Positions 6,910 through 64,000 of a stretch of 64,000 bases of DNA are shown piece after piece. Numbering within the stretch: position 1 is the first letter of the stretch; every line of letters starts with the position of its first letter. The notes beneath the pieces were generated by a model that did no database searches, was not told where the DNA came from, and saw only the letters and a list, made by a program, of their open reading frames with translations. The stretch is from Minisyncoccota bacterium. Lineage in GTDB: Bacteria; Patescibacteriota; Minisyncoccia; Phycocordibacterales; UBA9973. Position numbers and translations under genes: made by a program. The stretch spans positions 2,400 through 66,399 of the forward strand of contig JAGOQQ010000003.1 of assembly GCA_017991395.1 (NCBI GenBank), written 5' to 3'.

Positions 6910-7431
6910 ATGCAAAAAAAACGATCATTTTTCGAAAGACTCACTGGAGGAATACGAATGGAAGACGAATCTCATGATTCTGTTTCGCACGATCAATACG
7001 AAGAAGAACAACATCCTCGTACTATCAGTACACCTGGATCAAAATTCTCAAAAGTAACACCACAAGAAGAACCTCACGGAGCGTGGCAAGAAGAAGACGT
7101 GGGTGGACAACTCGCAGTCGATGTATATCAAACACCGGGAGAAATAATTGTACAGACAATGGTGGCTGGTGTACGACCAGAAGATCTCTCAATCAACATC
7201 ACACGAGACATGATTACAATTCGAGGAAAGCGTGAAGAAAATCGTACAATAAGCGAGGAAAACTATTTTACAAAAGAATTGTACTGGGGCTCATTTTCAC
7301 GTACGATTCTCCTTCCCCAAGAAATCGACCCAGAAAGTACTGAGGCGATAGAAAAGCACGGATTGCTCATCATAAAGCTTCCAAAGCTCGATAAAGGGCG
7401 TCAGACAAGTATCAAGGTGAAATCACTCTAA
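6910..7431 (+). CDS. Hsp20/alpha-crystallin family small heat-shock protein
   Basis: Alpha-crystallin domain: AVDVYQTPGEIIVQTMVAGVRPEDLSINI...FSRTILLPQEID...LLIIKLPK. Confidence 0.8.
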   Translation: MQKKRSFFERLTGGIRMEDESHDSVSHDQYEEEQHPRTISTPGSKFSKVTPQEEPHGAWQEEDVGGQLAVDVYQTPGEIIVQTMVAGVRPEDLSINITRDMITIRGKREENRTISEENYFTKELYWGSFSRTILLPQEIDPESTEAIEKHGLLIIKLPKLDKGRQTSIKVKSL

Positions 7432-7478
7432 TCAACAAATGGGCGACTGCATGCGCCGTCGCCCATTTGTTGATTTTT
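7432..7478. terminator. bidirectional rho-independent terminator (caacaaatgggcgac...gtcgcccatttgttg + T-run)
   Basis: Extended perfect inverted repeat followed by tttgttgattttt. Confidence 0.7.
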
Positions 7479-12499: not shown

Positions 12500-12862
12500 T
12501 TAACAACCTGATGTTCCTGGGATACAAGGAATGTTTTGAATAGATCCTTCATTTCCGTTAAGAAATGTATTTGAAAGCACATCTACAAGTCCCCACATTG
12601 CAACAATAACAAACAGTCCAATAATACCTGAAATCATCATGTTTCTTCCCTTCTCTTTTGTTCCGTCGTCCTTACCCATAACGTATGTAATCACACCGTA
12701 AATAAACACTGCAACTGCAAAAGTAATAAGCAATGGAATTATAATGTTCAAAATACGTTGAATTGTGCCAAGTATGCTCTCTGCATCAACAGTACCTTGT
12801 GCACCAACTACAAATGGGAACAAAAACATCAAAGGTAACAAAAACGAAATATACTTTTTCAT
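12500..12862 (-). CDS. secreted two-TM pilin-like protein (TrbC/VirB2-type architecture), paralogue 4
   Basis: Sec signal ...FVVGAQG, then TM1, a GKDDGTKEKGRN loop, TM2 and SNTF. Confidence 0.55.
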   Translation of the reverse strand: MKKYISFLLPLMFLFPFVVGAQGTVDAESILGTIQRILNIIIPLLITFAVAVFIYGVITYVMGKDDGTKEKGRNMMISGIIGLFVIVAMWGLVDVLSNTFLNGNEGSIQNIPCIPGTSGC

Positions 12863-12960
12863 AATTAATTTAATGAATAATAACTTATAATGAAGAGGAA
12901 ATACCTACTCTCCTTTGCTTATAATTATAGCACCGATTTTACAAAGTCAATACTAAAATA

Positions 12961-13500
12961 CTATTGATCTGTAGGGAAAAGTGGCAATACCGTATCAAAG
13001 CCGAAAGTATTCCCCACAACACGAACTATCCCCCACATTGCCGTCATAAAAAACAGTGCAAGTATTCCCCACAGAATATACTGTCTACCTTTCAAAAGTT
13101 CTTTTGGGTCAGCAGAAATCACATATTTAATAATCCCAATGATAAACAACGTAATCGCAAGAGTAAATACAAGTCTGAATATATTTGTTTGGATAAAGCA
13201 TCTTATATAATCCAAAAGCTCTCTTAAGTTTTCAAAATTTTTATTACAATACGCGAATACTTGAATATCTGTATTTTGTGTGGAACTATACAAATTTGAA
13301 TTTGTATCATATTGAACCTCATTTGGATCAACATTTCCCCAATCAAAGGTATTAAATACATTTCCATCATCAAATGTATTTCTCTGGGCAATAGCAACAC
13401 TCGGCACAAGTGTAGCAACACAAACAAACAACATAGCCATTACTGTCATGCATATTGCAATTCTTTTACTTATACTCATTGTTATACTTTTTTTACTCAT
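12961..13500 (-). CDS. secreted two-TM pilin-like protein, paralogue 3 (longer N-terminal Asn/Thr-rich region)
   Basis: Signal ...VAIAQR, TM1, an ADPKELLKGR loop, TM2 and GNTFGF. Confidence 0.55.
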   Translation of the reverse strand: MSKKSITMSISKRIAICMTVMAMLFVCVATLVPSVAIAQRNTFDDGNVFNTFDWGNVDPNEVQYDTNSNLYSSTQNTDIQVFAYCNKNFENLRELLDYIRCFIQTNIFRLVFTLAITLFIIGIIKYVISADPKELLKGRQYILWGILALFFMTAMWGIVRVVGNTFGFDTVLPLFPTDQ

Positions 13501-13504
13501 AGAT

Positions 13505-13954
13505 TTATGGGGTTACTAGCTCGTTGACTGTCTCGCCCAATGCATTTGCAAGCACCCATGCACCGAGAAGTATCGCGGCGCCAATCATTACACCAAAAAG
13601 ATTATTTTTTGCCTTTTCAATTTCGGAAGGATTTCCCCGTGCAGTGACAAATTTGAAACCTGCAAGAATAATAAATACGGCGATCACAGGCACACCAATA
13701 GTGAGTACAATATCAAGCAATCTTTTTACAAAATCAGTTATTGTATTGACACCAGAACCAGCAAGAGGGTTGTTGAGTTCAAAATCCAAAGTTATATCGC
13801 CAGTTCCTGTATCGAGACCTTGACCTCCACCTGTACCAGTATCTAATTGTGCGTACACAACACCAACATTCTGATTGCAAAGTGTTGCAATCGCCATTAG
13901 CAAAATTATGCAAATTTTTGTATTTTTATAAATCCAAAGTAAATGTTTTTTCAT
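13505..13954 (-). CDS. secreted two-TM pilin-like protein, paralogue 2 (Gly/Thr-rich N-terminal stretch)
   Basis: Signal ...VVYAQL, TM1, an ARGNPSEIEKAK loop, TM2 and ANALG. Confidence 0.55.
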   Translation of the reverse strand: MKKHLLWIYKNTKICIILLMAIATLCNQNVGVVYAQLDTGTGGGQGLDTGTGDITLDFELNNPLAGSGVNTITDFVKRLLDIVLTIGVPVIAVFIILAGFKFVTARGNPSEIEKAKNNLFGVMIGAAILLGAWVLANALGETVNELVTP

Positions 13955-13960
13955 AATTTT

Positions 13961-14341
13961 TTAATAAAATGCATCAAATTTGTCTGCATCGAATCCCAGA
14001 CCTTGCATTATCACCTTAACAATAAGATACGCTCCGAGCGCAACACCATATCCGATAAGCATCTTAATAAACATTGACTTTGCTTTTCCTTTATTGCTTG
14101 GATTGTCGCCTGATCGCATATAAAGCCACCCCGCATACGCAAACACAATTGCTGCAAAGGGTGTGGCGAGTGTGAACAACATGAAGTTGATTACATTGTT
14201 GAAAAGCACCATCAACTTCTCAAAACTACAATCCTCTCCGTCACATGGAATCAAATTTCCCTGCGCGTGTGTAATTGCTGGCACATAAATAGCGGTGAGT
14301 ATTAGAAATGATGTGCACAACGCCAAAATTTTTTTATACAT
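13961..14341 (-). CDS. secreted two-TM pilin-like protein, paralogue 1
   Basis: Signal ...AITHAQG, TM1, an RSGDNPSNKGKAK loop, TM2 and QGLGF. Confidence 0.55.
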   Translation of the reverse strand: MYKKILALCTSFLILTAIYVPAITHAQGNLIPCDGEDCSFEKLMVLFNNVINFMLFTLATPFAAIVFAYAGWLYMRSGDNPSNKGKAKSMFIKMLIGYGVALGAYLIVKVIMQGLGFDADKFDAFY

Positions 14342-30377: not shown

Positions 30378-30541
30378 ATAGTTTTTTATAGTACCACACT
30401 TTTGCTTTTTTTGACCTTTTTTGGTATTATAGTTGACGTATTCCCCTAGTGCTTAGCGAGCCATAAAGCTTTATAACCACGAAAGAATACATACAAAAAA
30501 AGAATATTCCCCTGTAGCTCAGCGGTAGAGCAATCGACTGT

Positions 30542-31111
30542 GGACATTTTCCGCCTGTTGTTATACTTAAGGTATGACCGACAAAAGGAAATATGCCGAT
30601 AGACGCGAGGCATTAATCAAAGCTGTTGTGAAAAGACGCAAGAAAGTAAAAGATCTTGCAATAGAATACAAAGGAGGCTCTTGCCAAATTTGTCACTACT
30701 CAAAATGTGTGGACGCTCTTGAGTTCCATCATATCAATCCTTTGGAAAAAGAATTCGGTATCGGAGCAAAAGGCTATACACGTTCTTGGGAAAGTGTTCG
30801 CAACGAATTAGATAAATGTGTTCTCTTGTGTGCAAATTGCCACAGAGAAGTTGAGTCTGGCATAACGCAGCTTTCTATCGAAAGATAGATTGAAAATGAG
30901 GTGAATTCGGGGAAACCCAAATGACGAAAAACAAGTCATGGGCAATCCCGAGCCAAGCCTTGATGAAAATCAAGGAAGGTGTAGAGACTATCCCGTAAGG
31001 GAGTAGGCTTCCGACTTTTGTTGGAACCCGAAGCGCCTCGGTCCTAAATTTTGTGGAAACAAAACACGGATATGATATAGTCCATCCCTTTAAGTAATTT
31101 TAGGATAAATG
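30542..31111 (+). mobile_element. group I intron in tRNA-Asn anticodon loop (between nt 35 and 36) carrying an HNH homing-endonuclease ORF
   Basis: Conserved group I elements: P-like gaattcggggaaa, Q-like aatcccgagc, R-like agagactat, S-like gatatagtcc. HNH ORF 30574..30888. Confidence 0.75.
30574..30888 (+). CDS. HNH endonuclease (intron-encoded)
   Basis: CQICHYSKCVDALEFHHINP...CANCHREVE: HNH nuclease motif with zinc-finger cysteines, 104 aa. Confidence 0.8.
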   Translation: MTDKRKYADRREALIKAVVKRRKKVKDLAIEYKGGSCQICHYSKCVDALEFHHINPLEKEFGIGAKGYTRSWESVRNELDKCVLLCANCHREVESGITQLSIER

Positions 31112-31198
31112 TAATCGATTGGTCGTAGGTTCGATCCCTACCGGGGGAGCATTGAATAAAAAGTTTGCCGTCCTTAAAGGGGCGGTTTTACTTTTTTA

Positions 31199-32888: not shown

Positions 32889-33027
32889 ATAATAGTCCCG
32901 CTTTAAATATGATTAAGCGGGATTATTTTTTTGAAGTGCCATCACTGGAAACACCCGAAAAATCTTAAAGAACTCAATATCTCTTTTAATTTGAATCCAA
33001 TTGAGAGTTCTGAACTCGTCCAACAAA

Positions 33028-33073
33028 GGGAGCAATAAAACAAGTCACGAAAGTGGCTTTTTTTATTGCTCCC
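33028..33073 (+). repeat. 13-bp perfect inverted repeat gggagcaataaaa / ttttattgctccc with 20-nt loop
   Basis: Sequence; overlaps the start of repeat unit B. Confidence 0.6.
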
Positions 33074-33230
33074 CCGAGAAAGCAAACTGCTTTGCTTTCG
33101 TGCAGGGATCAAACAGCGGAGCGATAAATTTCAGTAGGAAATTTCGCGAGCTGGTGCCCAGACAAATACGAGCGACGGCGAGTATTTAGTCGAGGGAGAT
33201 AAGTGTACTCACGTCCCTACCGGGGGAGCA
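33068..33230 (+). repeat. direct-repeat unit B (~163 bp); last 17 nt (tccctaccgggggagca) identical to the tRNA-Asn 3' end
   Basis: Terminal complementarity gctcccccg/cgggggagc; paralogue of unit A. Confidence 0.75.
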
Positions 33231-33305
33231 AAATTTTAAACTATTTTTTACAATGGTTATTTTTTGGAGGTTAGTAGAAGTTCGAACCTATGGTAAAATA
33301 CAAAT

Positions 33306-34040
33306 ATGGAATTTGAACCTAAAAATAGTAAACCCATTGATTATGTTAAAAGTAAGATAGAAAAATCTGAATATATTAGATTTGATAAAGATAAATATCT
33401 TAAACCTCTTTTTGAATATGATTCTTATATGGAATCTGGAAGTATTAAAGGAAAGATTGGTCAATCAGAAATCGATCTTGATTACACACAAGATGATCGC
33501 AAAATTTCCAATCCAAATATTAGAAAATTAGAGAGATTTATACTAAAAAATGATAAAACAAAGCTTGATGTCCTCGGTCTTCTTTCATCAGATTATTCTA
33601 CATATATAACGACAAACATAGATAAAGAAGACACTTCTTTTGGAAGTGTTAATCGTCCCAGAGAAAGAAAAATATATGTTAATACTCCTTTATTGAGTGT
33701 TGATGGTATCATGAGTCTTTTGCATGAAATTGGTCATAATAATAGAGACAAACAACAAAGTATTTCAGAACAAAATAAAGATGAAAATAGTCTATTAAGA
33801 TTTAAAGTGTCTGGGATAGTAGAAAAAATTTTAGCAGGAATGAGTCTCAGGGGTCCAAATATTAAAGATGCTTCACGTGTTTTACGAGACGAGAGAGATT
33901 CATGGAGTTTTGCTTTACAAAAAATAAGACCTTTTATGAAAGATTTAAATATTAATATTGAGGATATGGAGAACATAATACATCACGATGCACTTTACTC
34001 ATATTCATGGCTAATAAAGGATGATGTAAAACTTGAATAA
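33306..34040 (+). CDS. hypothetical protein with HExxH zinc-metallopeptidase motif (LLHEIGHNN)
   Basis: 244 aa, very AT-rich; the only recognisable element is the HEIGH motif. Confidence 0.4.
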   Translation: MEFEPKNSKPIDYVKSKIEKSEYIRFDKDKYLKPLFEYDSYMESGSIKGKIGQSEIDLDYTQDDRKISNPNIRKLERFILKNDKTKLDVLGLLSSDYSTYITTNIDKEDTSFGSVNRPRERKIYVNTPLLSVDGIMSLLHEIGHNNRDKQQSISEQNKDENSLLRFKVSGIVEKILAGMSLRGPNIKDASRVLRDERDSWSFALQKIRPFMKDLNINIEDMENIIHHDALYSYSWLIKDDVKLE

Positions 34041-34225
34041 ATTAATAAATTTTTTATCTTTCTTTGATTATGTTTATTCGAACATCCTCCCAAGTTCGGA
34101 GCATATTAAAAAGCACCAGAAATGGTGCTTTTTAATTACCGTATACCAAGTTCGAAGCTGGTTGTCTTTGTTTTGACATTTTATGTGAATAATGTAGTAT
34201 TTGGGTAAATTAATTAGCACACAAA

Positions 34226-34771
34226 ATGGAAATAGCAAAAGAAACAGTAGATTTTCTTCATGAAAATCTACATCAAACAAGAGCTGAATATTATATTAAT
34301 TTATTTAAATCAATGTCACAAATTGACTTTGATACAAGAATAAAAAAATATTGTTTCTTAGCATCTGAACGTGAAAGAAAACATTTTCTTGGAAAGTTGG
34401 ACACCGTCTCTGCTTTACTACTTATCGCAATTAAGATTATGGAGAAGGCAATTCAGGATAGGAAGCTCAACCTAAGACATTCCAATGAAGTGGGTATCTA
34501 TGCCTCACAAAAGGAAATTCTAAAAGCACGCAGTGATTACGAAGAAGCTGAGAGCCAGATCAGTAAAGCGGCAAAGGATTATTGGAGAACAAGGAAAAAA
34601 CTTTATCAAAATATTAAAGAATGTTTTAATAAAGAATTACCCTTACTACTTGAGTCTGGGGATTTACTTAAAACTCCAGCTGATTTTTATTATCAAAACT
34701 CAGGTTACGACTTTACATTTTATGGGCAAGATATCTATGTAATTAATTGGTATCCAATGGGTGGGGATTAG
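34226..34771 (+). CDS. hypothetical protein (181 aa)
   Basis: Clean ORF, followed by a 28-nt conserved motif and a terminator-like hairpin. Confidence 0.4.
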   Translation: MEIAKETVDFLHENLHQTRAEYYINLFKSMSQIDFDTRIKKYCFLASERERKHFLGKLDTVSALLLIAIKIMEKAIQDRKLNLRHSNEVGIYASQKEILKARSDYEEAESQISKAAKDYWRTRKKLYQNIKECFNKELPLLLESGDLLKTPADFYYQNSGYDFTFYGQDIYVINWYPMGGD

Positions 34772-34912
34772 ATTATCATAAAGGTTGAATTATAAACGTT
34801 CAGCCTTTTTTTATTTCCCCTCTAAAATAACTATTCGAACTTCATCCCACGTTCGGGGCAACAAAAAACCTGCTCCGACAACGGAACAGGTATTAAATTT
34901 AGTAAATGCAAA

Positions 34913-35551
34913 TCAGGCAGACACCTGAGATCGCAATTCAATTATTTTCTTTATGATTTTCAATAGGGTTTTATCCCCCGGCTCCTCTCCTTCTTCAGGT
35001 GCACTTAAGTATGCTTTTTCTGCTTCTTCCAATGTACAATTACCATAGTCCGAAAGAGATGAATATTTTGCCCTACGAATAAATCGGATAGGTATACCTG
35101 TTTCTTTCGCCATCTTTTCGTTTTCAGAAATTTCTTCACCAAAAACAATCTGGTACCCGATTTCGTCATCAATCTGTATGCTAGTTTGCATTTGCCCGGA
35201 AACATCTCCTCCAAACGCTCTCAACATATCTGTAGTGTTTTGTGATAATAGCATTTGCTGGCTATTTCTAATTGCCTTCGATAATAAATTAATTGATAAG
35301 CCAAAAATCCACTTTTGTTTTTCTTTTAACGTTTCAATTAATTCTTTAGATGGCACGCCTTTGATCTTGAAATCATCCTTATCATTTGAATACTCAATAT
35401 TCAAATCACTATCATCAGGATCAGATATAAGGTAATTGCAGGAAACCTCATCTCCGTTTTCGTTTTTAAAGGAAAACACACCCTTAAACTGGTTTTCAAT
35501 ATCTGTCCTAGATACTGTAACAGTAAGATTAATAATATGCATATTGTTCAT
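34913..35551 (-). CDS. hypothetical protein (212 aa), acidic
   Basis: ORF only. Confidence 0.4.
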   Translation of the reverse strand: MNNMHIINLTVTVSRTDIENQFKGVFSFKNENGDEVSCNYLISDPDDSDLNIEYSNDKDDFKIKGVPSKELIETLKEKQKWIFGLSINLLSKAIRNSQQMLLSQNTTDMLRAFGGDVSGQMQTSIQIDDEIGYQIVFGEEISENEKMAKETGIPIRFIRRAKYSSLSDYGNCTLEEAEKAYLSAPEEGEEPGDKTLLKIIKKIIELRSQVSA

Positions 35552-36417: not shown

Positions 36418-36933
36418 CTACCTCAAATAACTATCAAACCAAATTGCATGACACGTATATCCAGCGGGATTTTTTTGAAGATAGTCTTGATGGTACTCTT
36501 CCGCTTTGTAAAAAGCCGTGAGTGGCTCAAGTGTGGTCACCACAGGATCTTTCCATCGTTTTGAGTTGTTTACAATCTCAATAAAATTTTCTGCTTCCCT
36601 TTTCTCGTCGTCGTTTCCATAAAAAATAGCCGAGCGATATGATGTCCCTTTGTCATTGCGTTGCTGATTGAGTGTTGTGGGATTGTGAATTTGAAAGAAA
36701 AAGTCGAGAAGATTTTTGTATGAGGTTTTTGACGAATCATATTCTATCTCCACTGCTTCGGCGTGACCCGGATGATTGTCATATGTAGGATTGTCATTTT
36801 GTCCGCCCGTATATCCCACTTGTATTCCAACAACACCCGGCTGATTTCTCATCAGCTCCTCAAGCCCCCAAAAGCATCCGCCGGCAAGTACGATTTTTTT
36901 GTTCATAAGATTATTTGTCATCAAATTTTTCAA
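36418..36933 (-). CDS. msrA: peptide methionine-S-sulfoxide reductase
   Basis: GGCFWGLEE active site. Confidence 0.85.
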
Positions 36934-37303
36934 AACACACCGAATTTATGCAGTATCTTTTTCCGGTTTGTGTAGGACCATCATCAAAGAGATGTCCCAG
37001 ATGCGACCCACAGACCGCACACACAGTCTCAGTTCTACTCATACCATATGAATCATCGGCAATATTTTTCACGGCACCTGGAAGTGCGTCGTCAAAGCTC
37101 GGCCAGCCGGTACCCGAATCAAACTTTGCTTCAGCTTTAAAGAGCGGATTGCCACAGCCTGCACATCGATAAAAACCATCCTTGTCGGGAGATATGAGCT
37201 TGCCAGAAAAAGGCGCTTCAGTACCCTTGTTTCGCAACACTTCATATTGCTTTGGTGTAAGCTTTTTCTTGAATTCTTCTTCGTTTTGTATTTGGTGTGT
37301 CAT
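36911..37303 (-). CDS. msrB: peptide methionine-R-sulfoxide reductase
   Basis: CxxC zinc pairs (CAGCG...CAVCG), GWPSF and RYCINS motifs; overlaps msrA by 23 nt. Confidence 0.85.
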
Positions 37304-37333
37304 GTGTGTTTATGTGGTGAATAATTAAATAAA

Positions 37334-37591
37334 TTATTTCTTTCTATGTGGACACCCTATCCAACAGCATGGACGGCGTTTTCCTTTCAGTAGATTTTCG
37401 GACATAATTTTTATTCTGCGATTTCTCGTTTCTTCCATTTTTGCACTTGTAATCCAGCAAATCCACTCATTTCGAGCAAGAGGTGTAATGTCTTCCCAGA
37501 CATTCAATAGAGATGCTTTTGAAGAAAGAATTGTTTTTACGTCGCTTGGCAGAGTGTGCGCAACCCCAGCCGAGATTTTCATATTGGTCAT
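37334..37591 (-). CDS. YdeI/OmpD-associated (OmdA-like) family protein
   Basis: WITSAKMEETRNRRI...KGKR pattern typical of that small-protein family. Confidence 0.5.
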   Translation of the reverse strand: MTNMKISAGVAHTLPSDVKTILSSKASLLNVWEDITPLARNEWICWITSAKMEETRNRRIKIMSENLLKGKRRPCCWIGCPHRKK

Positions 37592-37690: not shown

Positions 37691-37720
37691 AACTGTACAG
37701 GGACTTTTCCCTGTACAGTT
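37691..37720 (-). terminator. terminator aactgtacaggga-cttt-tccctgtacagtt with U-run on minus
   Basis: 13-bp perfect stem 6 nt 3' of the arginine-kinase stop; a/t-rich run 37676-37690. Confidence 0.7.
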
Positions 37721-37725
37721 TCGTC

Positions 37726-38751
37726 TTACAACGATTTTTCTAACTCAATGAGTTTTTTCACACCATTGTAAAGTTGTTCAAAAATTTCTCTTTCTGTAAT
37801 ACCGAGACGTCGCTTGTTTGAAATGTCATAGATTCCATCAGATGACTCTGAATGTTCTCCGTGTACTCCTCGAATCGAAAGACCAAGCGATTTACATACC
37901 TCATTGAAATCAGGACTCGCTGAAAGTTTTGGAATTCTGATGTGCACTGAGGCGCGCATTGCTGTGCCAAGATTTGTTGGACATGTTGTGTAATATCCAC
38001 GAACATCGTCGAACGCAAAATTGATTTTCTTGTTTATTGTATCAAGCGCTGACGCAAGTCTACTGAAAACTTCTGCAATATCTGCTCCTTGTTGCATGCT
38101 GATAATTCGCATTGAATCTTCCTCTGAAACCCATACCAAAAACTTTTTATCATTTGAAAAAAAGATTCCGCGGTTTTTTGGCCAATCGCGATTGACACCA
38201 ACACTTTCCAAAAATCTATCTGCTTGTTTGAACAAGAAATGATCTTCAACCATTTTCTGTCGAACTTCCTCTGACATTCCATCTAGTGGAAAGTATTCTC
38301 CTTTCAGCGACTCAGGGAGCGCATTGAGCGCGTCTACAATTTCTGATTCCATTCTTGCCCTATCTTCCGCAGAAATCGCTGATGGAAATGCATACTTTGC
38401 AAAGTTTCTTCCTACCCGAATACGAGTAGAAACTACATACTGACCTTCAGGATCCAAATTTTCAGTTGACAGACCGCTCAGTGAAAAATCACTTTTGTGG
38501 CCGGTCATTTCATAATTGTGATATTCACGGATAATTGGATCAAATAACGGCGCAAGAAGCGTATACGACTCAGGTCCTCCTGCATATACACCTATGCTTG
38601 AATCTGGATTATCCTTCCCTGACTGTATAGCTCTCTGAGCTGTCCACCCGTTGGATTCGGTTATTCCATTAAGTTTTGCCAATAATTCTTCAGTACAGTG
38701 CTTCAACATAAGCATGTCTGGATTTGTTTTGATTTCTTTCATAAGGTACAT
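37726..38751 (-). CDS. arginine kinase-type phosphagen (ATP:guanido) kinase with metazoan-like N-terminal domain
   Basis: [15 protein letters not shown] active-site Cys motif and [34 protein letters not shown]. The N-terminal block [27 protein letters not shown] follows the guanidino-specificity region of arthropod arginine kinases. Confidence 0.85.
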   Translation of the reverse strand: [341 protein letters not shown]

Positions 38752-38845
38752 TTTAGTATAAATTCAAAAATAATACTATCTTTTATTGACTTTTTGTCAA
38801 TATGTATTGTTTTGAATTATATTGCTTAATTTACTTATTTAAAAA

Positions 38846-39929: not shown

Positions 39930-40058
39930 ATGGGAAAAAGAGCTACATCACTTGGTCCAAAAAAGAAATCACCACGATCTCCAAAGACCAAAAAAAGACT
40001 TGCAATCAAGAAGACAATGCTTGCAACACGTGCTGCAAAAAAGAAAAAGCGAGCATAG
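39930..40058 (+). CDS. unannotated small basic protein (42 aa, MGKRATSLGPKKKSPRSPKTKKRLAIKKTMLATRAAKKKKRA), ribosomal-protein-like composition
   Basis: Not in the ORF track (shorter than its cutoff). Bracketed by a consensus-like promoter and a strong terminator, a complete transcription unit. Confidence 0.35.
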   Translation: MGKRATSLGPKKKSPRSPKTKKRLAIKKTMLATRAAKKKKRA

Positions 40059-41261: not shown

Positions 41262-41296
41262 AAGCAAAAAAGTAGGCATTGCCTACTTTTTTGCTT
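41262..41296. terminator. bidirectional terminator gcaaaaaagtaggca-ttg-cctacttttttgc
   Basis: Perfect 15-bp stem; overlaps the last codons of the SET-domain gene. Confidence 0.7.
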
Positions 41297-41711
41297 TGTT
41301 CTTTTCTTTTTTAAGTACACACGACTGACATCGGCATCCAAACGGTTTGATGAATTCATCAAAATATTCTTCGCCATAATCATAATTGAGCTCTTCTCCT
41401 TTCTTTATAGTCTTCACCGCACTCACAAATATTCTTCTCTTTGGTGTATCAATCTCGCAATTTGGCTTACACGCATGATTGATATATCGTGCAACGTTTT
41501 TTCTGTCTGCACCATCTATCGTTAGATTTTTATTTATTTCAAAAAGATATTTCCCGCCTTTTTTGTTTGCTTCATCTGCGGTGAGCGCTTTTCCAATATA
41601 TTCAATCACAAACTCTCCCTTCTTAATATCCTCGTCTGCATACAACCCTAAACCGGAATGAGACTTTTTGACCCGTACCTTCTTCGGACTATCGTACTTA
41701 CTTTTTTTCAT
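41283..41711 (-). CDS. SET-domain protein (putative protein-lysine methyltransferase)
   Basis: GLGLYADEDIKKGEFVIEYIG...ARYINHACKPNC...ELNYDYG plus a post-SET Cys cluster CRCQSC. Confidence 0.8.
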   Translation of the reverse strand: MKKSKYDSPKKVRVKKSHSGLGLYADEDIKKGEFVIEYIGKALTADEANKKGGKYLFEINKNLTIDGADRKNVARYINHACKPNCEIDTPKRRIFVSAVKTIKKGEELNYDYGEEYFDEFIKPFGCRCQSCVLKKEKNKAKK

Positions 41712-52795: not shown

Positions 52796-54583
52796 CTACT
52801 TTTCATTCAGTGCATCAAGTCCCTCCTTCATCGACTGCATTCTTGATGCAATAATACGTTCAGCATCTTCGATATCCTTTGTATGTTGAGAAATAAGCCT
52901 TTTTTCACCGTCATTTGTTGAGCTGAGCAAACTTGCCCTCTTCAACGCCTGAGCGTCTTCTGATAAAATATCAAAACTACGCGCCAAAAGATGCTCTGTG
53001 TCTCTTAACTCATGAGATATCTTGTACTTCATCAGTCTCATTCTGTACCATATAAATGCAAGAAAGAAGGCAAGAATAATAATGACTATTATAATCGGAC
53101 CAATGAGTCCTCCACCCAGCATTCCAGCAAATAGCCCGGTTGATTTAACAACTACTATAACTGGCTCGGAATCCTCACTTGTTGCCCCTTCTTTATTCAC
53201 GGCTTTGACGCTAATCACATACGTATCTGCTCCAAATCTCTCTGCCAGCACAACGGTAAATGTGCCGTCTGCCCTAGCTTCAGTGGTCGTCTCAAATACA
53301 ACACCATCCTTGTTTTTTGAATTATAAAAAATCTTACTTCCCTTTTGGTTATTGTTTTGAGCTGAAAGTGACAACACCACATCAAAGTTTGGCAATGTCG
53401 TTCCTTTTATTATGATTGGTTCTCCTTCGTCTACAACACCTGTGTACTCGATAATCTTTGGCACAGGCAATCCTGTAATGGTAAATGTTTTCTTTTCTTT
53501 TATACTATTTCCTGCGCGATCTTTTGCGGTCACGGTGATAGTATGTTCTCCTGGTGGCAACGCTGGAGTCTCATAGATATTTGATGAATTCTCAAACCAT
53601 GTTGTTCCATATGAAGTTCCAATCTCAATTTCGTATTCCTTTATTCCTGAACTCAAATCTTCTGACTCAAACATGAAGCGTGCACGAGGGCTTGTTTTTG
53701 CACTCTTGTCCATTTCTGTAACGACGAGCTTTGAAGGTGGTGTTGTGTCTATTTGAAACCGGAAATGCGCTATTGACCCCCATCCTTTTTCGTTTCTGGT
53801 TCTCACATGTAAATACCAAGAACCATCCTCAAGTACATCGGTTGTGTACATAGACATCATACCTTTTGATGATGTGCCTGGATTTGTAGTTGGTTTTTTA
53901 TCTACCACATATGTCACTCCGGTAGTATCTGGGGCAAGATTCCATGCGAAAGATGCCTTATTTATTGGATACCATTCAAAACCACTTTTGTGTGTTGATG
54001 ATATGACTTGCGGCGCTTGTGGCAACCCTTTCCCTGCTTCCTCAGTAGTAAACTCAGATCCTACAGGTCCAAGCACATATGTGCCATCTCGAACAGACGC
54101 GAGTATGTTTGTACCCTTTCCGTCATTAGCAAGAACTGATGCTGAAAGAAAATTCACCGGAGCGGTACCTTGTGCTTTTACTTTAAATGTAATTGTAAAT
54201 ATTGTTCCTCGTGACCCCTTGTATCCTGGATTAAGCACAATACCTTCAAATCTCATCACGCCAGGTTCAGACGAGTATTCACCCGGGTCAATAGTCCAAA
54301 AATTGACTATTGAAGATGCCTTGGAAACCGAAGTGACAGAGAGCTTATCAGAAGGATAATTTATTCTTCCTGAAAGTGCATTGAGGGCTTGCTCGGTACT
54401 TGTAGTATAAATAGACACTGAAAAACTATCACCAACATTGTAATTTCCTGAATTTGGTGACACAAGCAAACTTGCCGCAAAAGAGTAGTGCGGAGCGACA
54501 AAAAAACAAAACACCGCAAACACGCACGCTAAAATCGCCTGAAAAAAAAGCAGTATATTACTCTTTTTTCCTTGTATATACAT
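52796..54583 (-). CDS. cell-surface protein: N-terminal cohesin-like domain, Ig-like repeats, C-terminal TM anchor and cytoplasmic coiled-coil tail
   Basis: LLVSPNSGNYNVGDSFSVSIYTT...INYPSDKLSVTSV...GTIFTITFKVKAQGTAPVNF, a cohesin-type beta-sandwich signature. TM segment GPIIIVIIILAFFLAFIWY near the C-terminus. The ORF opens at 54625; the likely start is the MYIQGKK Met at 54583. Confidence 0.55.
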   Translation of the reverse strand: MYIQGKKSNILLFFQAILACVFAVFCFFVAPHYSFAASLLVSPNSGNYNVGDSFSVSIYTTSTEQALNALSGRINYPSDKLSVTSVSKASSIVNFWTIDPGEYSSEPGVMRFEGIVLNPGYKGSRGTIFTITFKVKAQGTAPVNFLSASVLANDGKGTNILASVRDGTYVLGPVGSEFTTEEAGKGLPQAPQVISSTHKSGFEWYPINKASFAWNLAPDTTGVTYVVDKKPTTNPGTSSKGMMSMYTTDVLEDGSWYLHVRTRNEKGWGSIAHFRFQIDTTPPSKLVVTEMDKSAKTSPRARFMFESEDLSSGIKEYEIEIGTSYGTTWFENSSNIYETPALPPGEHTITVTAKDRAGNSIKEKKTFTITGLPVPKIIEYTGVVDEGEPIIIKGTTLPNFDVVLSLSAQNNNQKGSKIFYNSKNKDGVVFETTTEARADGTFTVVLAERFGADTYVISVKAVNKEGATSEDSEPVIVVVKSTGLFAGMLGGGLIGPIIIVIIILAFFLAFIWYRMRLMKYKISHELRDTEHLLARSFDILSEDAQALKRASLLSSTNDGEKRLISQHTKDIEDAERIIASRMQSMKEGLDALNEK

Positions 54584-55445
54584 AGGCAAAAATACTAACT
54601 CCAATAAGCAATGCACACAGCCCAATCAATACACCCAAGCCCAGCATGCTCACAAGATTATTTCCAAACTTTATTTTTGCCTCTCTCTCGTTTCCGTTTT
54701 TATCGACAGCAATTACCCTGATTGTTGATTTTAATGATTGATCTTGAAGTAAGTATGGGCTTTTTGCACTAATCCAACTACTTGAACCTTCTTTTATTCT
54801 ATATGAGGCAATACCTGTTTCTTTGTCTTTGGCGTCAAATACTACAAAATATTTTCCGTCGAAAAATCTATTATCTCTTTTTACTAAAAGAGTAAACGGT
54901 TCTGGAGGATTTGTGTCGAATGAAAAATCATCCACAGAAAATCCTTCATTTGAGATCATAAATTCATATGGCAATGTCTTGGTTACACCGCGAGTTCCCA
55001 AACCATCATTTAGAAATGTGTCAGCCGATGTAAAAGTGAGTGACCCCTTTCCTTCACTTTTTGCGACAAATACGAGCCTTGTGACACGTCCAGAAGAAAC
55101 AGAATTGGTGACTGGGTCAATAAGACCACTAAAACCCCCTGCAGCAATACCTGCAAAGCGAATTGAATTTCCGTTAAGTGCGGGTGTCTCAACCCATCCG
55201 TTTATTATTGATCCGGTATCAAAATAATCTACAAATTCAAGAAATTCACTTGGAAATATTATTTCTGCCTCGACAGCATTTGTGTTTTTTCCCTCTGTGT
55301 CGAGAAAAATATCAAAATAAATTTTATCCCCAGTTTTGAAATGTTGAGTTGGTGATGAAAAATATATCTCAGATGCCAAAGTTGCTCGAGGAGTTACGGC
55401 GAGTAAAAGAAAGGCAAATGTGATTATATAGAAAAATTTTTTCAT
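54558..55445 (-). CDS. cell-surface protein with N-terminal cohesin-like domain and C-terminal TM anchor
   Basis: SEIYFSSPTQHFKTGDKIYFDIFLDTEG...AVEAEIIFPSEFLEFVDYF...GRVTRLVFVAKSEGKGSLTF, then TM LGLGVLIGLCALLIGVSIFAYVY. The ORF runs to 55460, overlapping the upstream stop; start taken at the MKKFF Met at 55445. Confidence 0.5.
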   Translation of the reverse strand: MKKFFYIITFAFLLLAVTPRATLASEIYFSSPTQHFKTGDKIYFDIFLDTEGKNTNAVEAEIIFPSEFLEFVDYFDTGSIINGWVETPALNGNSIRFAGIAAGGFSGLIDPVTNSVSSGRVTRLVFVAKSEGKGSLTFTSADTFLNDGLGTRGVTKTLPYEFMISNEGFSVDDFSFDTNPPEPFTLLVKRDNRFFDGKYFVVFDAKDKETGIASYRIKEGSSSWISAKSPYLLQDQSLKSTIRVIAVDKNGNEREAKIKFGNNLVSMLGLGVLIGLCALLIGVSIFAYVYTRKKE

Positions 55446-55447
55446 AA

Positions 55448-56338
55448 TTATCCAGTCCAATAATACGCCATAATACTAAAGTCAACAATTGACACGATTC
55501 CGTCTTTACTCAAATCAACGTATGACGGGGGTGCCACTTTTTTGTACCAAAATGCAAGAATACTGAAGTCAACAATGTTGACATATCCATCTTGATTTAA
55601 ATCAGCGTCAATAAACGTATTATTATTTTGATTTTTGATAATCGTCTCATTTCCAACTTTAAAATATGTAAGCTTACCGTACTGACTTACTTCATTTGTA
55701 TACACTGCTTTTGATTTTGCTGAGTGATCGCCGTATTCTAAAATTGATGTATCCAAATTAAATAAATATGCTCCACCAGAATCGGATGGCACTTGAAAAA
55801 AATGTGGCACCAATGAGTTTACATTTATTGTAACATTACTGTTTGGAGCAGTTTGTCCGAAAATGGAAAGTGTATCACCTTGCTTGACCTGAATTTTGTC
55901 GGTATCAATAGTAGGAGCAAGAAAAATGCCAGAAATGGTAGCAAAAACTCCCTGTGATATCATGATCGGAAAAGTAAACAATGTAGAACGCCTTCCTAGT
56001 GAATCCTCAGACCATACCGAAAATGTGTAAGTGGATGGAGAAAGCCCACTTACAACAATTTCAAAATGCGCATCTGGACCTGCAATAGTAGAGACTATCT
56101 GCTGACCGTCTTTGAGCACCACCACCGTAGAGAGAGGATATGCTCTTCCAATAAATTTTACACCCGTAAAAATACCTCCGGTACCCCCCGAACCTCCACT
56201 CCCTTGACCAGGATCAGTAGTACTAACAACTTGTGCTGTGATAGTTATGTTTTCTGTTCCCTGCGACTGCGCATAGGAAACTGAATATGTTGAAACAATA
56301 GTTAAAATCAGTAAAAATGATAGTAGAAATTGCTTCAT
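55448..56338 (-). CDS. secreted protein with C-terminal type-I dockerin module
   Basis: Signal peptide; C-terminal duplicated Ca-binding segments DLNQDGYVNIVDFSIL and DLSKDGIVSIVDFSIM. Confidence 0.7.
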   Translation of the reverse strand: MKQFLLSFLLILTIVSTYSVSYAQSQGTENITITAQVVSTTDPGQGSGGSGGTGGIFTGVKFIGRAYPLSTVVVLKDGQQIVSTIAGPDAHFEIVVSGLSPSTYTFSVWSEDSLGRRSTLFTFPIMISQGVFATISGIFLAPTIDTDKIQVKQGDTLSIFGQTAPNSNVTINVNSLVPHFFQVPSDSGGAYLFNLDTSILEYGDHSAKSKAVYTNEVSQYGKLTYFKVGNETIIKNQNNNTFIDADLNQDGYVNIVDFSILAFWYKKVAPPSYVDLSKDGIVSIVDFSIMAYYWTG

Positions 56339-59678: not shown

Positions 59679-62600
59679 TTAAAAATTTCCAGTTGCAATA
59701 TATGTAATTGTCGAAGAATATTGTCCCGCTTCTGTGATTGCTGAAATATTTCCGAGATATCGAACAGAATATGTTGTGAGTGTATTGTCCCCAGTAGCTG
59801 CGGATGCGACTTCATCTGGAACCGAAACACCATCGTATGCATAGTTTGACGCGTGATTGTATGGAGAAGATGCTGCACCTGATCCACCTGAAGCGGTAAC
59901 TCTAATACCAAATTGTTCTGTATTTGTCGAAGATGCGGCACTTGTGCCACCAATAGCATCGATTGATTTTGCGCCATCGGCAAGAGAAGCTCCAGAAACC
60001 GTCACAAGATATCCGGATGGCGCATTTGTGGTGACATCAAATGTATGCGCAACAGTCTCTGACCCCGATCCAAGTGTGTCTCCGGTGGCATATCGTGCGG
60101 CTCCAGATGAGAGATTTCCAAATCCGATTGTATTATCAGAAATTGCAAATGTGAGTGATGGTGTAAATGAACTAAATGTCCAATTCGTATTTCCTGTCGA
60201 ATCATAGTTTGAGGTATCAGATGCATCAATTGTCACTCCTCCGCTTGCATCAGAATCTTTGGCATCAACATTAAACACAATTGCATCTCCACCGACCACA
60301 TTAAAATACCAAGGATTTCCAGATGTAGACGATCGTAATGCCACTCGAGTTCCTGTGGCTTGACCATTAAAATCAATTCCATTGCCGATTTGGTATGTTT
60401 CTCCTTCTTGGAATCGTATTTTTACATTTGCAGTCGTTACCACAAAAGTCTTTTCTACATTAAATCCATCTAAAAATATTACCGAAGGACTCGTATCGGG
60501 ATTGCTACCTGAGTTATTTACTATTTGAAGATCTTGAAATGGATAATCAATCATCCCACCCGCAGGACCAGACAATATCTGCTGACTTGCGCCATCTAGA
60601 GTTAATGTACTCCCATTATGATAAAACACTGCATTGTTTGTATAATCTCCACCGAGAGTCCATTCAATAGTATTTGGTGCATCAAATTGTGCGCCTGAAT
60701 TAATTGTCAAATCTCCGTTTATATCCAAAGCTGAAGCATTTGAAGTGAACACTGAACCGGAATTTAATGTGAATCCTCCTGTAGTAAATGAAAAATTGGA
60801 ACCACTAGTATCAAGATTTGTTGTTGCCGAACCGGTCGGAGTAAGGACTGTATTTCCAGAAACCACAAGCTCATCTGCAAACACAAAATCAAGCTGACAT
60901 GCACACCCACTAGGAGTCACTGAAAAATTTGTATTAATAGTCGATATTGCCCCTGACTGAATTGTGTATATTCTCCCCACAGAAGCAAAAGATGGCGAGA
61001 GTGTTAAATTTCCATAAGTATCTCCGTCTATTGTAACGGCCGCATCACCATTGTATACATACGTAGCACTTCCCGCATTATGAGTTCCACCATCAGTAAA
61101 TGGCAAAGATACCGCTCCAGTGAGTGTGACAGTAGATGCATTTGCTTCCCATGTGGTTGATGCATCAATTGTAATTGAACGCATCGTCACGGCGTAGTTT
61201 GACACATTTGTATTAAATACCACAGTCGCGGTTCCGGTAGGATTTACATCAATATCACTATTTGAACCACCAGTAAACACGCCACCTGTATTAAGTGTTA
61301 ATTCATATGGTGTGATACTTGCTGATGGCACAACAGAAACATCCCCTGTAAAAGTAATTGTACTTCCAGATGTAAATTGATACGCTCGATCGGCGGTAAT
61401 AGCAGGATTCACTGTGACATTGTTGAATGTAATAGCCCCTGAAGTCATCGGATTTACATCTGCATTTGCATTGAACACTACAGTCGAAGTTCCTGCAGTA
61501 AATGTTCCACTAGAAAGGGTGAATGGTGTTGATGATCCTGTAAGTGTAATTGTCGATCCATTTGCAGTTAAAATTCCTCCTGAAAGAATTTCGATTCTTC
61601 CTGCTTCGAGTGCATAGTTTGTACCTGTGGTATTCCACTCACAATCTGCAGAAGTATTTTTCTTAATTGTGAGAAGGTCAGTGACGTCAATAGTATTTGC
61701 CATATCCACTTGAAGCTCATAAACACCACCAGAGCCAGACGGGTTGCAAAGTAGATCGTCCAACACAGTCACAGCACTTGTCGAAATTGTATAGGTACGT
61801 GATGCAGTAAGTGTGGGTGAAAGTTCCAAATCATAAAACTCTGTTATTCCCGACGAAAGTGTGAGTGTTCCTACACCATTGAAAATCACAGTACTTGTTC
61901 CCTCATCAAAAGTACCTGCACTTCGTGTAAGTGGTGACGAAGATGTACCAGTCAAGGTAATTGTCGAAGTCTCTGCGGTGAAAGTTGCTCGTGCGTCGGA
62001 TAGTGTTAAGGATGCCGCGGTGACTGAGTACCCATTAGTTTGCAACTCAGCATATGCAGTACTCGACGGAATTATCTGTATTCTGTCTGTCGCAGATATT
62101 CCACCAGCACCAAGATCTACGGTCAGTGCATTATTGTTTATAAATGATGAAGTTGGGCTAATTATAAAATCATCATTAACTGTTATTGCGCCTGCACCGA
62201 AAGTATAGGTTTTTCCAGTTGAAAGTTCTGGTGAAAGAGTGATGTTGTTGAAAGTAATTGCACCTGAGGTGAGAGTAGTACTTCCATCACCGTTAAAAAT
62301 CACAGTACTTGTCGAAGGAGTAAATGTTCCGCTGTTTGTAAACATCACACCACTTGTACCATATATTGTGATAGTGTATGTTCCGCCAGCATTCAGTGTA
62401 TGCGAACTGGCAATCGAAATTGTTTTTGCGTTCATTCCTGACGCAAGAAGTAATTGAGGTGTTGATGTTCCACCTGTAAGACTAATATCTCCAAGACTAT
62501 CGAGTGATCCGTTGTTTGTAAATGTTGCGGTACCTACCGATGAAAACGTAATTGGATTTGCCGAAGACGCAATCCATACCGCACTCGTGTGTATTGTCAT

Positions 62601-64000
62601 ATCACCTTTGAGTACAAGTGCAGGATCGTAAGTATCGTGCTGAAGTGTGAGGGTTCCTCCATTCCCCACAACAAAATCTTCATTCACTGTGATTGTTTGT
62701 GATGTTGTCGTACCGAGTGTGTATGTTTGAGTACCAGATGCGGGATACACTTGCAATGTGGCGTATGTGGTCGCTTGAACTTCAGTCGCAGAAGTTCCAG
62801 TAAATCGTGTGATATTTCTATCTGGTGTATAGGTTCCTTCTACGACAAAAGGTCGAGATGTTCCTGTGCCACTATTTGAAAGTGTCAAAGTCTCCGTCAC
62901 ACCAGTGTACGTTCCTGCCGATCCAATTTTTAACACAGTCGAATTCACATCACCTCCAGGAGTATATTCATCTACAACAAGCACACCACCGGTAGTATAT
63001 GTAGGTACGTTTGTTGAACATGTAAAAAGATTGTCACCAGAAGCTGGGTATGTTGAAAATCCACACACTTCGACGTTTGTCGTCGCATCAGTGTGAGTAT
63101 GATAAATAGCCGCTCGGTCTACGTACAAATGCAGAGTTTGATTTGCAGCATTTACTTCTGAAATCGAGTTTGCATCATTTGCGTTTCCTTGAATATATAC
63201 TGCGATCTGATCTCCGGCCGAAATTCCAACGTTTGAAAATGAGTACGCCCCGCCTGATGCCGTGGTTGTGACCGGCGAGCCATTGTTGATTGAGAGTGCG
63301 ATAGTGTATCCAGTGGTGTCTAATGTGGATTCACTTCCCGATTGGTAAATATTTCCCGATACTGTGTACTCAGGAACAGTATCAACCCATCCCATCGTGA
63401 CAAATGCAAAATCAAGTTCATTGTTTGTACCAGCTGCTCCTGGAGATGAATTTCGCAAGCGAAGCCATACTTTATCACTCACCGTATTTACTATATCTTC
63501 TGGCCAGACATTAAATCCGTTGATTCCCTGACAAGTTCCAGTTGCACTACAACCAGAAAGCCCAAACACAGTTCCGATAGTAATCGGATCACTATACACG
63601 GCAGTAGTAGTGGCACCAGAAGTGGCATTTGAAGTAGAGCCCACAGATGTCACACCAAAATTAGAGCCAGATTTATCAAACATAGACAAAAGCACTGTTC
63701 CATTTACACTTGAACGAAATCTCCCCCCCACGAATACAGATGTTAGATAGACATTGTCTGGTTTAGTAAGCGGGAAATTGAGCCACTGTGCACCACCATA
63801 TTCTTGGTTGATATCATTGTCACTATCATACGCATAAAACGCTGTTCCAAATGTATTCGATTCTTGCACTGCTGTATTAATCCACTGCGCTGCTGTCGTA
63901 GTTGTGTCAATAGTTCGAGTATCCGTACAATCTCCCGATGAAAGTGTTCCAAATGATATGAAGCAATCTGTTCCCGCAGAATCATTGTTTGTGCTTCCCA
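59679..64000 (-). CDS. giant (>1,440 aa) Thr/Gly/Ser/Asn-rich surface protein, C-terminal WxL-like domain; N-terminus lies beyond the window end
   Basis: The minus-strand frame is open from 59679 through position 64000 with no in-frame ATG/GTG/TTG upstream of the listed GTG at 63869. No signal peptide at the listed start. The repetitive beta-strand-like composition suggests a beta-helix/adhesin-like fold. Confidence 0.55.
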   Translation of the reverse strand, partial: GSTNNDSAGTDCFISFGTLSSGDCTDTRTIDTTTTAAQWINTAVQESNTFGTAFYAYDSDNDINQEYGGAQWLNFPLTKPDNVYLTSVFVGGRFRSSVNGTVLLSMFDKSGSNFGVTSVGSTSNATSGATTTAVYSDPITIGTVFGLSGCSATGTCQGINGFNVWPEDIVNTVSDKVWLRLRNSSPGAAGTNNELDFAFVTMGWVDTVPEYTVSGNIYQSGSESTLDTTGYTIALSINNGSPVTTTASGGAYSFSNVGISAGDQIAVYIQGNANDANSISEVNAANQTLHLYVDRAAIYHTHTDATTNVEVCGFSTYPASGDNLFTCSTNVPTYTTGGVLVVDEYTPGGDVNSTVLKIGSAGTYTGVTETLTLSNSGTGTSRPFVVEGTYTPDRNITRFTGTSATEVQATTYATLQVYPASGTQTYTLGTTTSQTITVNEDFVVGNGGTLTLQHDTYDPALVLKGDMTIHTSAVWIASSANPITFSSVGTATFTNNGSLDSLGDISLTGGTSTPQLLLASGMNAKTISIASSHTLNAGGTYTITIYGTSGVMFTNSGTFTPSTSTVIFNGDGSTTLTSGAITFNNITLSPELSTGKTYTFGAGAITVNDDFIISPTSSFINNNALTVDLGAGGISATDRIQIIPSSTAYAELQTNGYSVTAASLTLSDARATFTAETSTITLTGTSSSPLTRSAGTFDEGTSTVIFNGVGTLTLSSGITEFYDLELSPTLTASRTYTISTSAVTVLDDLLCNPSGSGGVYELQVDMANTIDVTDLLTIKKNTSADCEWNTTGTNYALEAGRIEILSGGILTANGSTITLTGSSTPFTLSSGTFTAGTSTVVFNANADVNPMTSGAITFNNVTVNPAITADRAYQFTSGSTITFTGDVSVVPSASITPYELTLNTGGVFTGGSNSDIDVNPTGTATVVFNTNVSNYAVTMRSITIDASTTWEANASTVTLTGAVSLPFTDGGTHNAGSATYVYNGDAAVTIDGDTYGNLTLSPSFASVGRIYTIQSGAISTINTNFSVTPSGCACQLDFVFADELVVSGNTVLTPTGSATTNLDTSGSNFSFTTGGFTLNSGSVFTSNASALDINGDLTINSGAQFDAPNTIEWTLGGDYTNNAVFYHNGSTLTLDGASQQILSGPAGGMIDYPFQDLQIVNNSGSNPDTSPSVIFLDGFNVEKTFVVTTANVKIRFQEGETYQIGNGIDFNGQATGTRVALRSSTSGNPWYFNVVGGDAIVFNVDAKDSDASGGVTIDASDTSNYDSTGNTNWTFSSFTPSLTFAISDNTIGFGNLSSGAARYATGDTLGSGSETVAHTFDVTTNAPSGYLVTVSGASLADGAKSIDAIGGTSAASSTNTEQFGIRVTASGGSGAASSPYNHASNYAYDGVSVPDEVASAATGDNTLTTYSVRYLGNISAITEAGQYSSTITYIATGNF

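Follow-up and report, generated by a model that had tools for sequence, protein, structure and literature searches.

The 64-kb stretch of DNA analysed here (the window) encodes an intact two-domain phosphagen kinase of the arginine kinase (AK) type in an ultra-small bacterium of the Patescibacteria (CPR), as comparison of the translated gene with domain models and solved structures confirms. The identity of the enzyme is well supported by these comparisons. It is highly probable that the gene specifies a catalytically competent kinase of free arginine (EC 2.7.3.3 type) with the role and the evolutionary history proposed below. The gene extends the known phenomenon of bacterial AKs, and the branch to which it belongs, i.e., the AKs of Patescibacteria, is large, long-established, and apparently undescribed, without constituting a new type of enzyme or system. 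No paper on this clade was found in the full-text literature searched, most subscription journals lying outside it.

The AK gene occupies positions 37726–38751 on the minus strand, stop codon included, and is an ATG-initiated open reading frame of 341 aa. An alternative start at Met4 (position 38742) would yield a protein of 338 aa. Since most relatives have this length and begin with MKEIK, Met4 may be the true start. Both phosphagen-kinase domains are present, each scoring above its Pfam gathering cut-off: the N-terminal alpha-helical guanidino-substrate domain PF02807 (aa 13–75; positions 38527–38715, minus strand; 68.8 bits at a cut-off of 25.7) and the C-terminal catalytic domain PF00217 (aa 134–340; positions 37732–38352, minus strand; 246.6 bits at a cut-off of 22.4, E = 1.9e-73). 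In a PDB search, arginine kinases were matched over the whole length of the protein, with E-values between 1e-99 and 1e-215. The best match was the two-domain AK of Anthopleura (4rf6), whose two units scored 348 and 368 bits, followed by a trematode taurocyamine kinase. By type, arthropod AKs scored approximately 320–336 bits, creatine kinases (CKs) approximately 245 bits, and McsB approximately 108 bits.

For a comparison of individual residues, the window protein was aligned with 118 homologues, the deposited Limulus AK (1rl9_A) and human CKB (3b6r_A) from PDB being used as references. We take the functional positions to be those of the Limulus transition-state structure (1BG0/1M15). The 20 canonical AK positions in Limulus numbering are conserved in the window protein, with G64 and V65 as the sole departures. 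Across 80 members of the Patescibacteria clade, the same positions are invariant except for one T-to-S replacement and the variable positions 64 (S, N, or G) and 65 (I or V). The conserved residues include the domain-coupling pair D62 and R193 (D50 and R179 in the window protein, invariant in the clade), S63 and Y68 at the carboxylate and amino end of the substrate (S51 and Y56), and E225, C271, and E314, which position the guanidinium group (E211, C257, and E299, with both glutamates invariant across the clade). The residues binding the nucleotide phosphates, R126, R229, R280, R309, and R330 together with H284 (R112, R215, R266, R294, R315, and H270), are kept in 80 of 80 clade members.

The reactive-cysteine signature CPTNLGT (aa 257–263; positions 37963–37983, minus strand) is retained, its C257 aligning with C271 of Limulus and the residues equivalent to P272, T273, and N274 being conserved. 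It matches the phosphagen-kinase pattern C-P-x-[ST]-N-[ILV]-G-T, and within the clade its C, P, and N are invariant, while T is found in 79 of 80 members. The guanidino-specificity loop D50-S51-S52-I53-G54-V55-Y56 (positions 38584–38604, minus strand) corresponds to D62-S63-G64-V65-G66-I67-Y68 of Limulus and differs from it by the replacements of G64 by S and of V65 by I. Measured from IQ to ESY, the loop comprises 22 residues in both the window protein and Limulus AK and 26 in human CKB (3b6r), i.e., it has the short length typical of AKs, four residues less than in CK. The flexible catalytic loop R294-G-V-H-G-E299-H300 (R309 to E314-H315 in Limulus; positions 37852–37872, minus strand) is likewise of the AK type, with GEHSES as in AKs at the place of GGVDTA in CK. 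Loop length and E299, where CK has Val, thus separate the protein from creatine kinases. Both strings quoted in the original prediction, the catalytic motif and the N-terminal specificity region, are present in the translation. Its description of the protein as matching arthropod AKs almost residue for residue holds for the motifs, where the Limulus sequence given there proved approximately right by comparison with 1rl9_A, but not for the protein as a whole, which is 43% identical to Limulus AK.

Two readings of the enzyme other than a kinase of free arginine bear on these data. McsB has a homologous catalytic domain, and several homologues carry the automatic JGI name "protein-arginine kinase", so that a McsB-like enzyme marking proteins for Clp-dependent degradation might be envisaged. 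It is scarcely credible, given that the five NCBIfam equivalog models of McsB and protein-arginine kinases scored 85–161 bits at cut-offs of 381–679 (160.7 bits at a cut-off of 385 for the best of them) and aligned to aa ~100–340 only. The AK N-terminal substrate domain, which McsB lacks, is present; the PDB score of McsB is far below the 320–368 bits of AKs; and no gene for McsA, CtsR, or ClpC was seen in the neighbourhood. The original claim of a full phosphagen kinase distinct from McsB is in agreement with all of this. A phosphagen kinase with the same chemistry and a different guanidino substrate (D-arginine, taurocyamine, glycocyamine, or a novel compound) is very unlikely, even though substrate switches are documented within AK-like phosphagen-kinase lineages. 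The trematode taurocyamine kinase, second among the PDB matches, itself evolved from an AK, and the S-I at positions 64/65 (N-I in some clade members), where arthropod AKs have G-V, leaves room for a shifted substrate preference. However, G64 and V65 of Limulus AK touch the substrate via backbone atoms (1BG0/1M15), and conservation covers the equivalents of S63, Y68, E225, C271, E314, and the D62-R193 pair as well as the AK length of the loop. Moreover, similar substitutions (S/Q/R and I/V/M) occur in the myxobacterial relatives, and the Myxococcus enzyme is treated as an AK (PMC11492440). Arginine is the predicted substrate.

The AK gene appears to have transcription signals of its own. An intrinsic terminator identified by scanning and folding (positions 37679–37722, minus strand) starts 4 nt past the stop codon and consists of a 14–15-bp perfect hairpin followed by a T-run. 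It folds at −23.5 kcal/mol (z = −7.1), a value not matched by any of 200 shuffled sequences; the terminator that had been ascribed to the gene is real. On the other side, a promoter-like site recognized by consensus match only (TTGACA-16 nt-TAGTAT; positions 38773–38800, minus strand) stops 22 nt short of the ATG, while reading of the sequence upstream of this ATG gave no clear Shine-Dalgarno element. Given its own promoter-like site and its own terminator, the gene is most likely monocistronic.

As originally described, the AK lies among small genes of unrelated function. Downstream on the same strand are genes for an OmdA-family protein (85 aa), MsrB, and MsrA; upstream are those for a conserved protein of 173 aa that no Pfam model matches, for small membrane proteins, for VanY, and for a protein with a SET domain. 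The remainder of the window contains housekeeping genes (DnaE, GyrA, two aminoacyl-tRNA synthetases, TsaD, peptide deformylase, formyltransferase, Pth, signal peptidase, and RNase HII), genes for pyruvate kinase and a histidine-phosphatase/PGM-family protein, for Hsp20 and a ribosome-hibernation factor, three T4SS-pilin-like genes, and genes for surface proteins with cohesin, dockerin, and Ig domains. Genes for arginine transport, for the arginine deiminase pathway, or for any other part of arginine metabolism were not recognized in the 64-kb window.

An identical AK protein in a 100% identical neighbourhood was found in three separate assemblies (SRR11088409, SRR11088410, and SRR11088447). 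When one genome per GTDB species was considered, 11 close relatives of the AK (77–89% identity) were identified in MAGs labelled Candidatus Paceibacterota, Minisyncoccia, "uncultured Saccharibacteria", or "uncultured bacterium". The closest locus (L004, Paceibacterota MAG DALYDM010000008) shares with the window eight consecutive syntenic genes (DUF2231, hyp203, hyp268, SET, VanY, mem134, hyp173, and AK) at 46–92% amino acid identity, with 89% for the AK. By this synteny, the window belongs to the reduced genome of a member of Paceibacterota (Patescibacteria/CPR), and the minimal genome assumed at the outset is reasonable. Beyond L004 the neighbourhood is not conserved, the AK always being situated among small bacterial genes, and no general conserved functional partner emerged from 14 independent loci.

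Several local associations were nevertheless observed. In 5 of 11 loci, the AK is directly preceded, on its own strand, by a 105-aa ORF without a Pfam match, which is absent from the window. A SET-domain gene is located within approximately 3 kb of the AK in the window, in L004, in L017, and in L018, a locus of the second Paceibacterota group (see below). OmdA is found near the AK in the window, L005, and L016, and genes related to thiol or oxidative stress in the window (MsrAB) and in L017 (AhpC/Redoxin). These recurring associations are weak, and none extends widely enough for a system to be defined by it.

In composition, the AK gene is indistinguishable from its neighbours. Its GC content, GC3, and codon-adaptation index (0.401, 0.323, and 0.700) are close to the means of 65 window genes (0.394, 0.326, and 0.692), with z-scores of 0.20, −0.08, and 0.19, respectively (rank 31 of 65). 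The comparison of codon usage and GC, suggested originally as a check, therefore does not single the gene out. The dN/dS ratio between the AK and its syntenic orthologue in L004 is 0.067, an approximate value as dS (~1.2) is near saturation, and is similar to those of neighbouring conserved genes; the AK is under strong purifying selection. Given the genome-like composition, the synteny with a relative at 89% identity, and this selection, any transfer of the gene must be old and have occurred at the level of the lineage. The AK is neither a recent nor a private acquisition, and the acquired gene of the original prediction was not acquired by this genome.

A search of a large protein database yielded 5250 homologues. 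With clustering at 90% identity, the first ~81 representatives are 69–96% identical to the window AK, have lengths of 322–351 aa, and contain both domains. At least 80 such clusters, with hundreds of sequences, form the Patescibacteria AK clade, in which all members carrying organism names are assigned to Paceibacterota, Nomurabacteria, Pacebacteria, or Patescibacteria, and the proteins already bear the correct names "phosphagen kinase" or "arginine kinase" in NCBI/GenBank. The window AK belongs to this clade by identity (at least 69%), by monophyly, and by its occurrence on a Patescibacteria contig. Next in similarity are the AKs of Archangium and Vitiosangium (64–68%), Myxococcus (56–58%), and a second Paceibacterota-labelled group (56–58%), whereas identity is 48–51% for the Anthopleura AK units, 50% for a homologue from a gammaproteobacterial MAG (L015), and 47–49% for trematode and mollusc two-domain AKs. 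Thus, the closest relatives are from Patescibacteria and then from myxobacteria, and the metazoan or arthropod affinity put forward in the original prediction is not upheld.

The phylogeny was distance-based only. The retrieved proteins were split into 347 single kinase units, of which 288 were aligned, and neighbor-joining (NJ) trees with 100 bootstraps were constructed from Kimura and gamma-corrected distances. A representative library clustered at 50% served for outgroup diversity only and did not resolve the close relatives of the AK; in it, eukaryotic proteins with several domains apparently stood for the neighbourhood of the window AK. One of the near neighbours proved to be an AK from Percolomonas.

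The main Patescibacteria clade has a bootstrap support of 96 in the Kimura NJ tree and 89 with a gamma correction (a = 1). In the Kimura tree, this clade groups with Archangiaceae-type sequences at a support of 60 and with all myxobacteria at 97. In gamma-corrected trees of the 110 nearest units, the union of Patescibacteria and myxobacteria is supported at 90–93, and myxobacteria are monophyletic without Patescibacteria at 87–90; with catalytic-domain columns only, support falls to 36–56. Further, a linker indel state and the motifs GHxSDFSLxGLPxExLDPEG, LGLSIRG, and GVTEREIY are common to the Patescibacteria clade and the myxobacterial AKs, and all of these are absent from cnidarian, arthropod, and gammaproteobacterial AKs and from those of the second Paceibacterota group. 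The trees and the shared characters argue robustly for a common origin of the Patescibacteria and myxobacterial AKs inside the eukaryote-dominated AK family. The nesting of Patescibacteria within myxobacteria next to Archangiaceae, as seen in the Kimura tree, was rejected, gamma-corrected distances favouring a sister relationship.

Such a common origin of enzymes from two bacterial phyla, both within an otherwise eukaryotic family, would imply an ancient inter-phylum transfer. The occurrence of this transfer is inferred, and we make no claim on its direction because sister or nested placement depends on the distance correction. The second Paceibacterota group (P0099, P0111, P0116, and others) never joins the main clade, and monophyly of all Patescibacteria AKs was never recovered; this group may represent a separate acquisition.

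In the mechanism that we propose, the N-terminal loop (S51, Y56, and the backbone of S52/I53) would grip the carboxylate and amino end of L-arginine, and its guanidinium group would be positioned by E211, E299, and C257. MgATP would be bound by five arginines (R112, R215, R266, R294, and R315) and H270, and the D50-R179 pair would couple domain closure, enabling reversible transfer of the gamma-phosphate (Arg + MgATP <-> phosphoarginine + MgADP). Transcription of the gene would start at its own promoter, end at its own terminator, and include no other gene. The gene belongs to an old clade spread through Patescibacteria and kept by purifying selection, and was not acquired by this genome. In an ultra-small cell that probably obtains ATP mainly from substrate-level phosphorylation (pyruvate kinase is encoded in the same window), the phosphoarginine pool could act as a temporal buffer or reserve of ATP when the supply from host or environment fluctuates or under stress. 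This presumed ATP-buffering role would echo, by analogy, the need for AK in Myxococcus development. Spatial buffering by an AK, on the other hand, would be meaningless in a very small cell, which counts against the buffering view, as does the lack of recognized arginine-related genes in the 64-kb window.

Other readings concern the role and the origin of the gene rather than its chemistry. The AK might serve mainly in survival of stress or dormancy (oxidative, pH, starvation) or in phosphate storage, roles of the kind suggested for Myxococcus development and for microbes that express an AK; we regard this as possible but rather unlikely. It adjoins OmdA-MsrB-MsrA in the window, Hsp20 and a ribosome-hibernation factor are encoded in the same stretch, the AK of the divergent relative L017 lies directly downstream of the AhpC/Redoxin gene, and in Myxococcus the enzyme is required for fruiting bodies and viable spores (PMC11492440). 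The strong terminator, however, separates the AK from the OmdA and Msr genes, and the neighbourhood is not conserved in most relatives. In addition, stress protection by AKs is usually put down to ATP buffering, so that the two roles differ in emphasis, not in mechanism. A bolder variant of the buffering role makes phosphoarginine a previously unrecognized energy currency in a sizeable lineage of ultra-small episymbiotic Patescibacteria, in which ATP equivalents would be banked on the host and spent in host-free dispersal, or the phosphagen of an AK-bearing host would be converted. We consider this variant doubtful; if it were true, the ancestry shared with myxobacterial AKs would record exchange with myxobacterial partners or hosts and provide a clue to host range. 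As for an artefact, the AK family is mainly eukaryotic, and a eukaryotic gene could in principle have entered a bacterial contig through mis-binning or chimeric assembly. The probability of this is negligible: the gene is intronless, with bacterial genes on both sides on one contig, a bacterial-type terminator, and host-like codon usage, and it was recovered repeatedly and independently, in an identical neighbourhood in the three assemblies and in syntenic or otherwise bacterial contexts in many MAGs. Taken together, these observations exclude contamination and chimerism.

The AK clade, with its proposed energy-buffering function, is of moderate interest for the evolution of phosphagen kinases and for CPR physiology. 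Bacterial AKs are regarded as rare and are reported, in the last survey traced, to be concentrated in Proteobacteria. A well-conserved clade of at least 80 clusters in Patescibacteria extends their range to those free-standing bacterial genomes in which reduction has gone furthest. As Patescibacteria have very few routes for making or storing ATP, a dedicated energy-buffering device would be physiologically informative there. The clade also constitutes a compact, easily expressed set of enzymes for probing phosphagen systems in very small cells, and its probable sister relationship with myxobacterial AKs offers a specific instance of presumed transfer between phyla whose timing and direction could be worked out.

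Bacterial AKs have been known since 2008, e.g., from Desulfotalea, Myxococcus, Sulfurovum, Moritella, Oceanithermus, and Ahrensia, and are viewed as sporadic and probably horizontally acquired (PMC11492440), so that the sporadic transfer invoked in the original prediction coincides with the published view. The AK of Desulfotalea was the first to be characterized (Andrews et al.), and related bacterial AKs hold all residues required for activity (PMC11492440). Among known systems, McsB of Bacillota is comparable to the window AK in its homologous catalytic domain PF00217, but has a different C-terminal domain, a protein substrate, and a dependence on McsA, and is devoid of the AK N-terminal domain. 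Cnidarian and arthropod AKs (Anthopleura, 4rf6; Limulus, 1m15/1rl9; Litopenaeus, 4bhl) agree with the window AK in fold, domains, catalytic and substrate residues, and length of the specificity loop, but are only 43–51% identical to it, and the N-terminus of animal AKs is longer. In the Anthopleura enzyme, two units are joined in tandem and three residues are inserted in the flexible loop, in contrast to the single unit encoded in the window. The AKs of Desulfotalea psychrophila, Sulfurovum, Oceanithermus, Moritella, and others (clusters A and B') are also true phosphagen kinases regarded as horizontally acquired; they fall into different clusters according to the literature. The gammaproteobacterial homologue L015 is only 50% identical to the window AK. 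The second Paceibacterota group resembles the window AK in being a single-unit AK on Patescibacteria-labelled contigs, with an adjacent SET gene in L018, and differs in its linker indel and motifs and in its position outside the main clade.

The closest known counterparts are the myxobacterial AKs (Ark of Myxococcus xanthus and its homologues from Archangium and Vitiosangium), which make up "cluster B" of Suzuki 2013 and Fraga 2019 as these are summarized in a review (PMC11492440). Like the window AK, they are single two-domain units of ~330–340 aa without the first ~10 residues of animal AKs, and they share with it 56–68% identity, the linker indel, the motifs, and a joint bootstrap of 90–97. 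Their hosts, however, are developmentally complex predators with large genomes, whereas that of the window AK is an ultra-small member of Patescibacteria with a reduced genome, and the Patescibacteria AKs form a clade apart from them (bootstrap 89–96 at the main settings).

Small SET-domain (lysine methyltransferase-like) genes are found near the arginine kinase (AK) gene both in the window and in related genomes. In the window, such a gene is located at 41283..41711 on the minus strand; others occupy positions 1963..2391 of L004, the locus of the window's close relative, and 4248..4658 of L017, a locus from a divergent member of the AK clade, all at a distance of about 3 kb or less from AK. 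At L018, the locus of the separate "group 2" AKs, the SET-domain gene (7034..7477) is immediately downstream of AK. This proximity could reflect chance, if these genomes commonly carry SET genes.

The region 3' of the AK terminator in the window (36418..37591, minus strand) contains consecutive genes for an OmdA-family protein (85 aa), MsrB, and MsrA, with the latter two genes overlapping each other. The divergent relative differs in this respect, as at L017 an AhpC/Redoxin gene is situated directly upstream of AK. Judged by its neighborhood, AK is loosely associated with oxidative-damage repair genes.

Five of the 11 related Patescibacteria loci carry a conserved ORF of about 105 aa (MQKNNYAPLIEFHGY...DLRKKKK) directly upstream of AK on the same strand, localized on the plus strand at 5589..5900 in L007, 5587..5907 in L008, 3840..4157 in L009, 5589..5906 in L011, and 5590..5907 in L013. 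It matches no Pfam family and lacks a homolog within the 64-kb window; in some members of the clade, it could serve AK as an accessory or regulatory partner. An extremely basic, lysine-rich 42-aa ORF (MGKRATSLGPKKKSPRSPKTKKRLAIKKTMLATRAAKKKKRA; 39930..40058, plus strand) is situated between the AK neighborhood and the VanY and SET genes of the window, and is annotated as a gene on Logan contigs, which come from separate assemblies with an identical AK neighborhood.

The local GC content dips to 0.329 at 33001..35000, compared to the window mean of about 0.39. Within this trough, an ORF at 33306..34040 has a GC content of 0.287, a GC3 of 0.160, and no Pfam match. As recently acquired DNA, the trough is a better candidate than the AK gene.

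A group I intron of 570 nt interrupts the anticodon loop of a tRNA-Asn(GTT) gene (30508..31150, plus strand); the ribozyme core of this intron was identified at 30828..31104 on the plus strand (Rfam RF00028, 58.3 bits). The 5' part of the intron contains an HNH-endonuclease ORF of about 104 aa (PF01844, 21.9 bits; cut-off 21.4). The split tRNA was recovered by ARAGORN in intron mode, and overlooked at default settings.

Two stretches of the minus strand (52796..56338 and 59679..63869) hold a predicted surface-protein cluster with cohesin, dockerin, Big_13/Big_6, and TIG domains and, nearby, a 1396-aa ORF with zero Pfam matches, preceded by a 467-aa ORF; together, these may constitute host-attachment machinery. 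Three successive small genes at 12500..14341 (minus strand), adjoined by a solute-binding protein gene, encode T4SS-pilin/TrbC-VirB2-like domains, consistent with the conjugation-like type IV secretion apparatus that has been reported from Patescibacteria.
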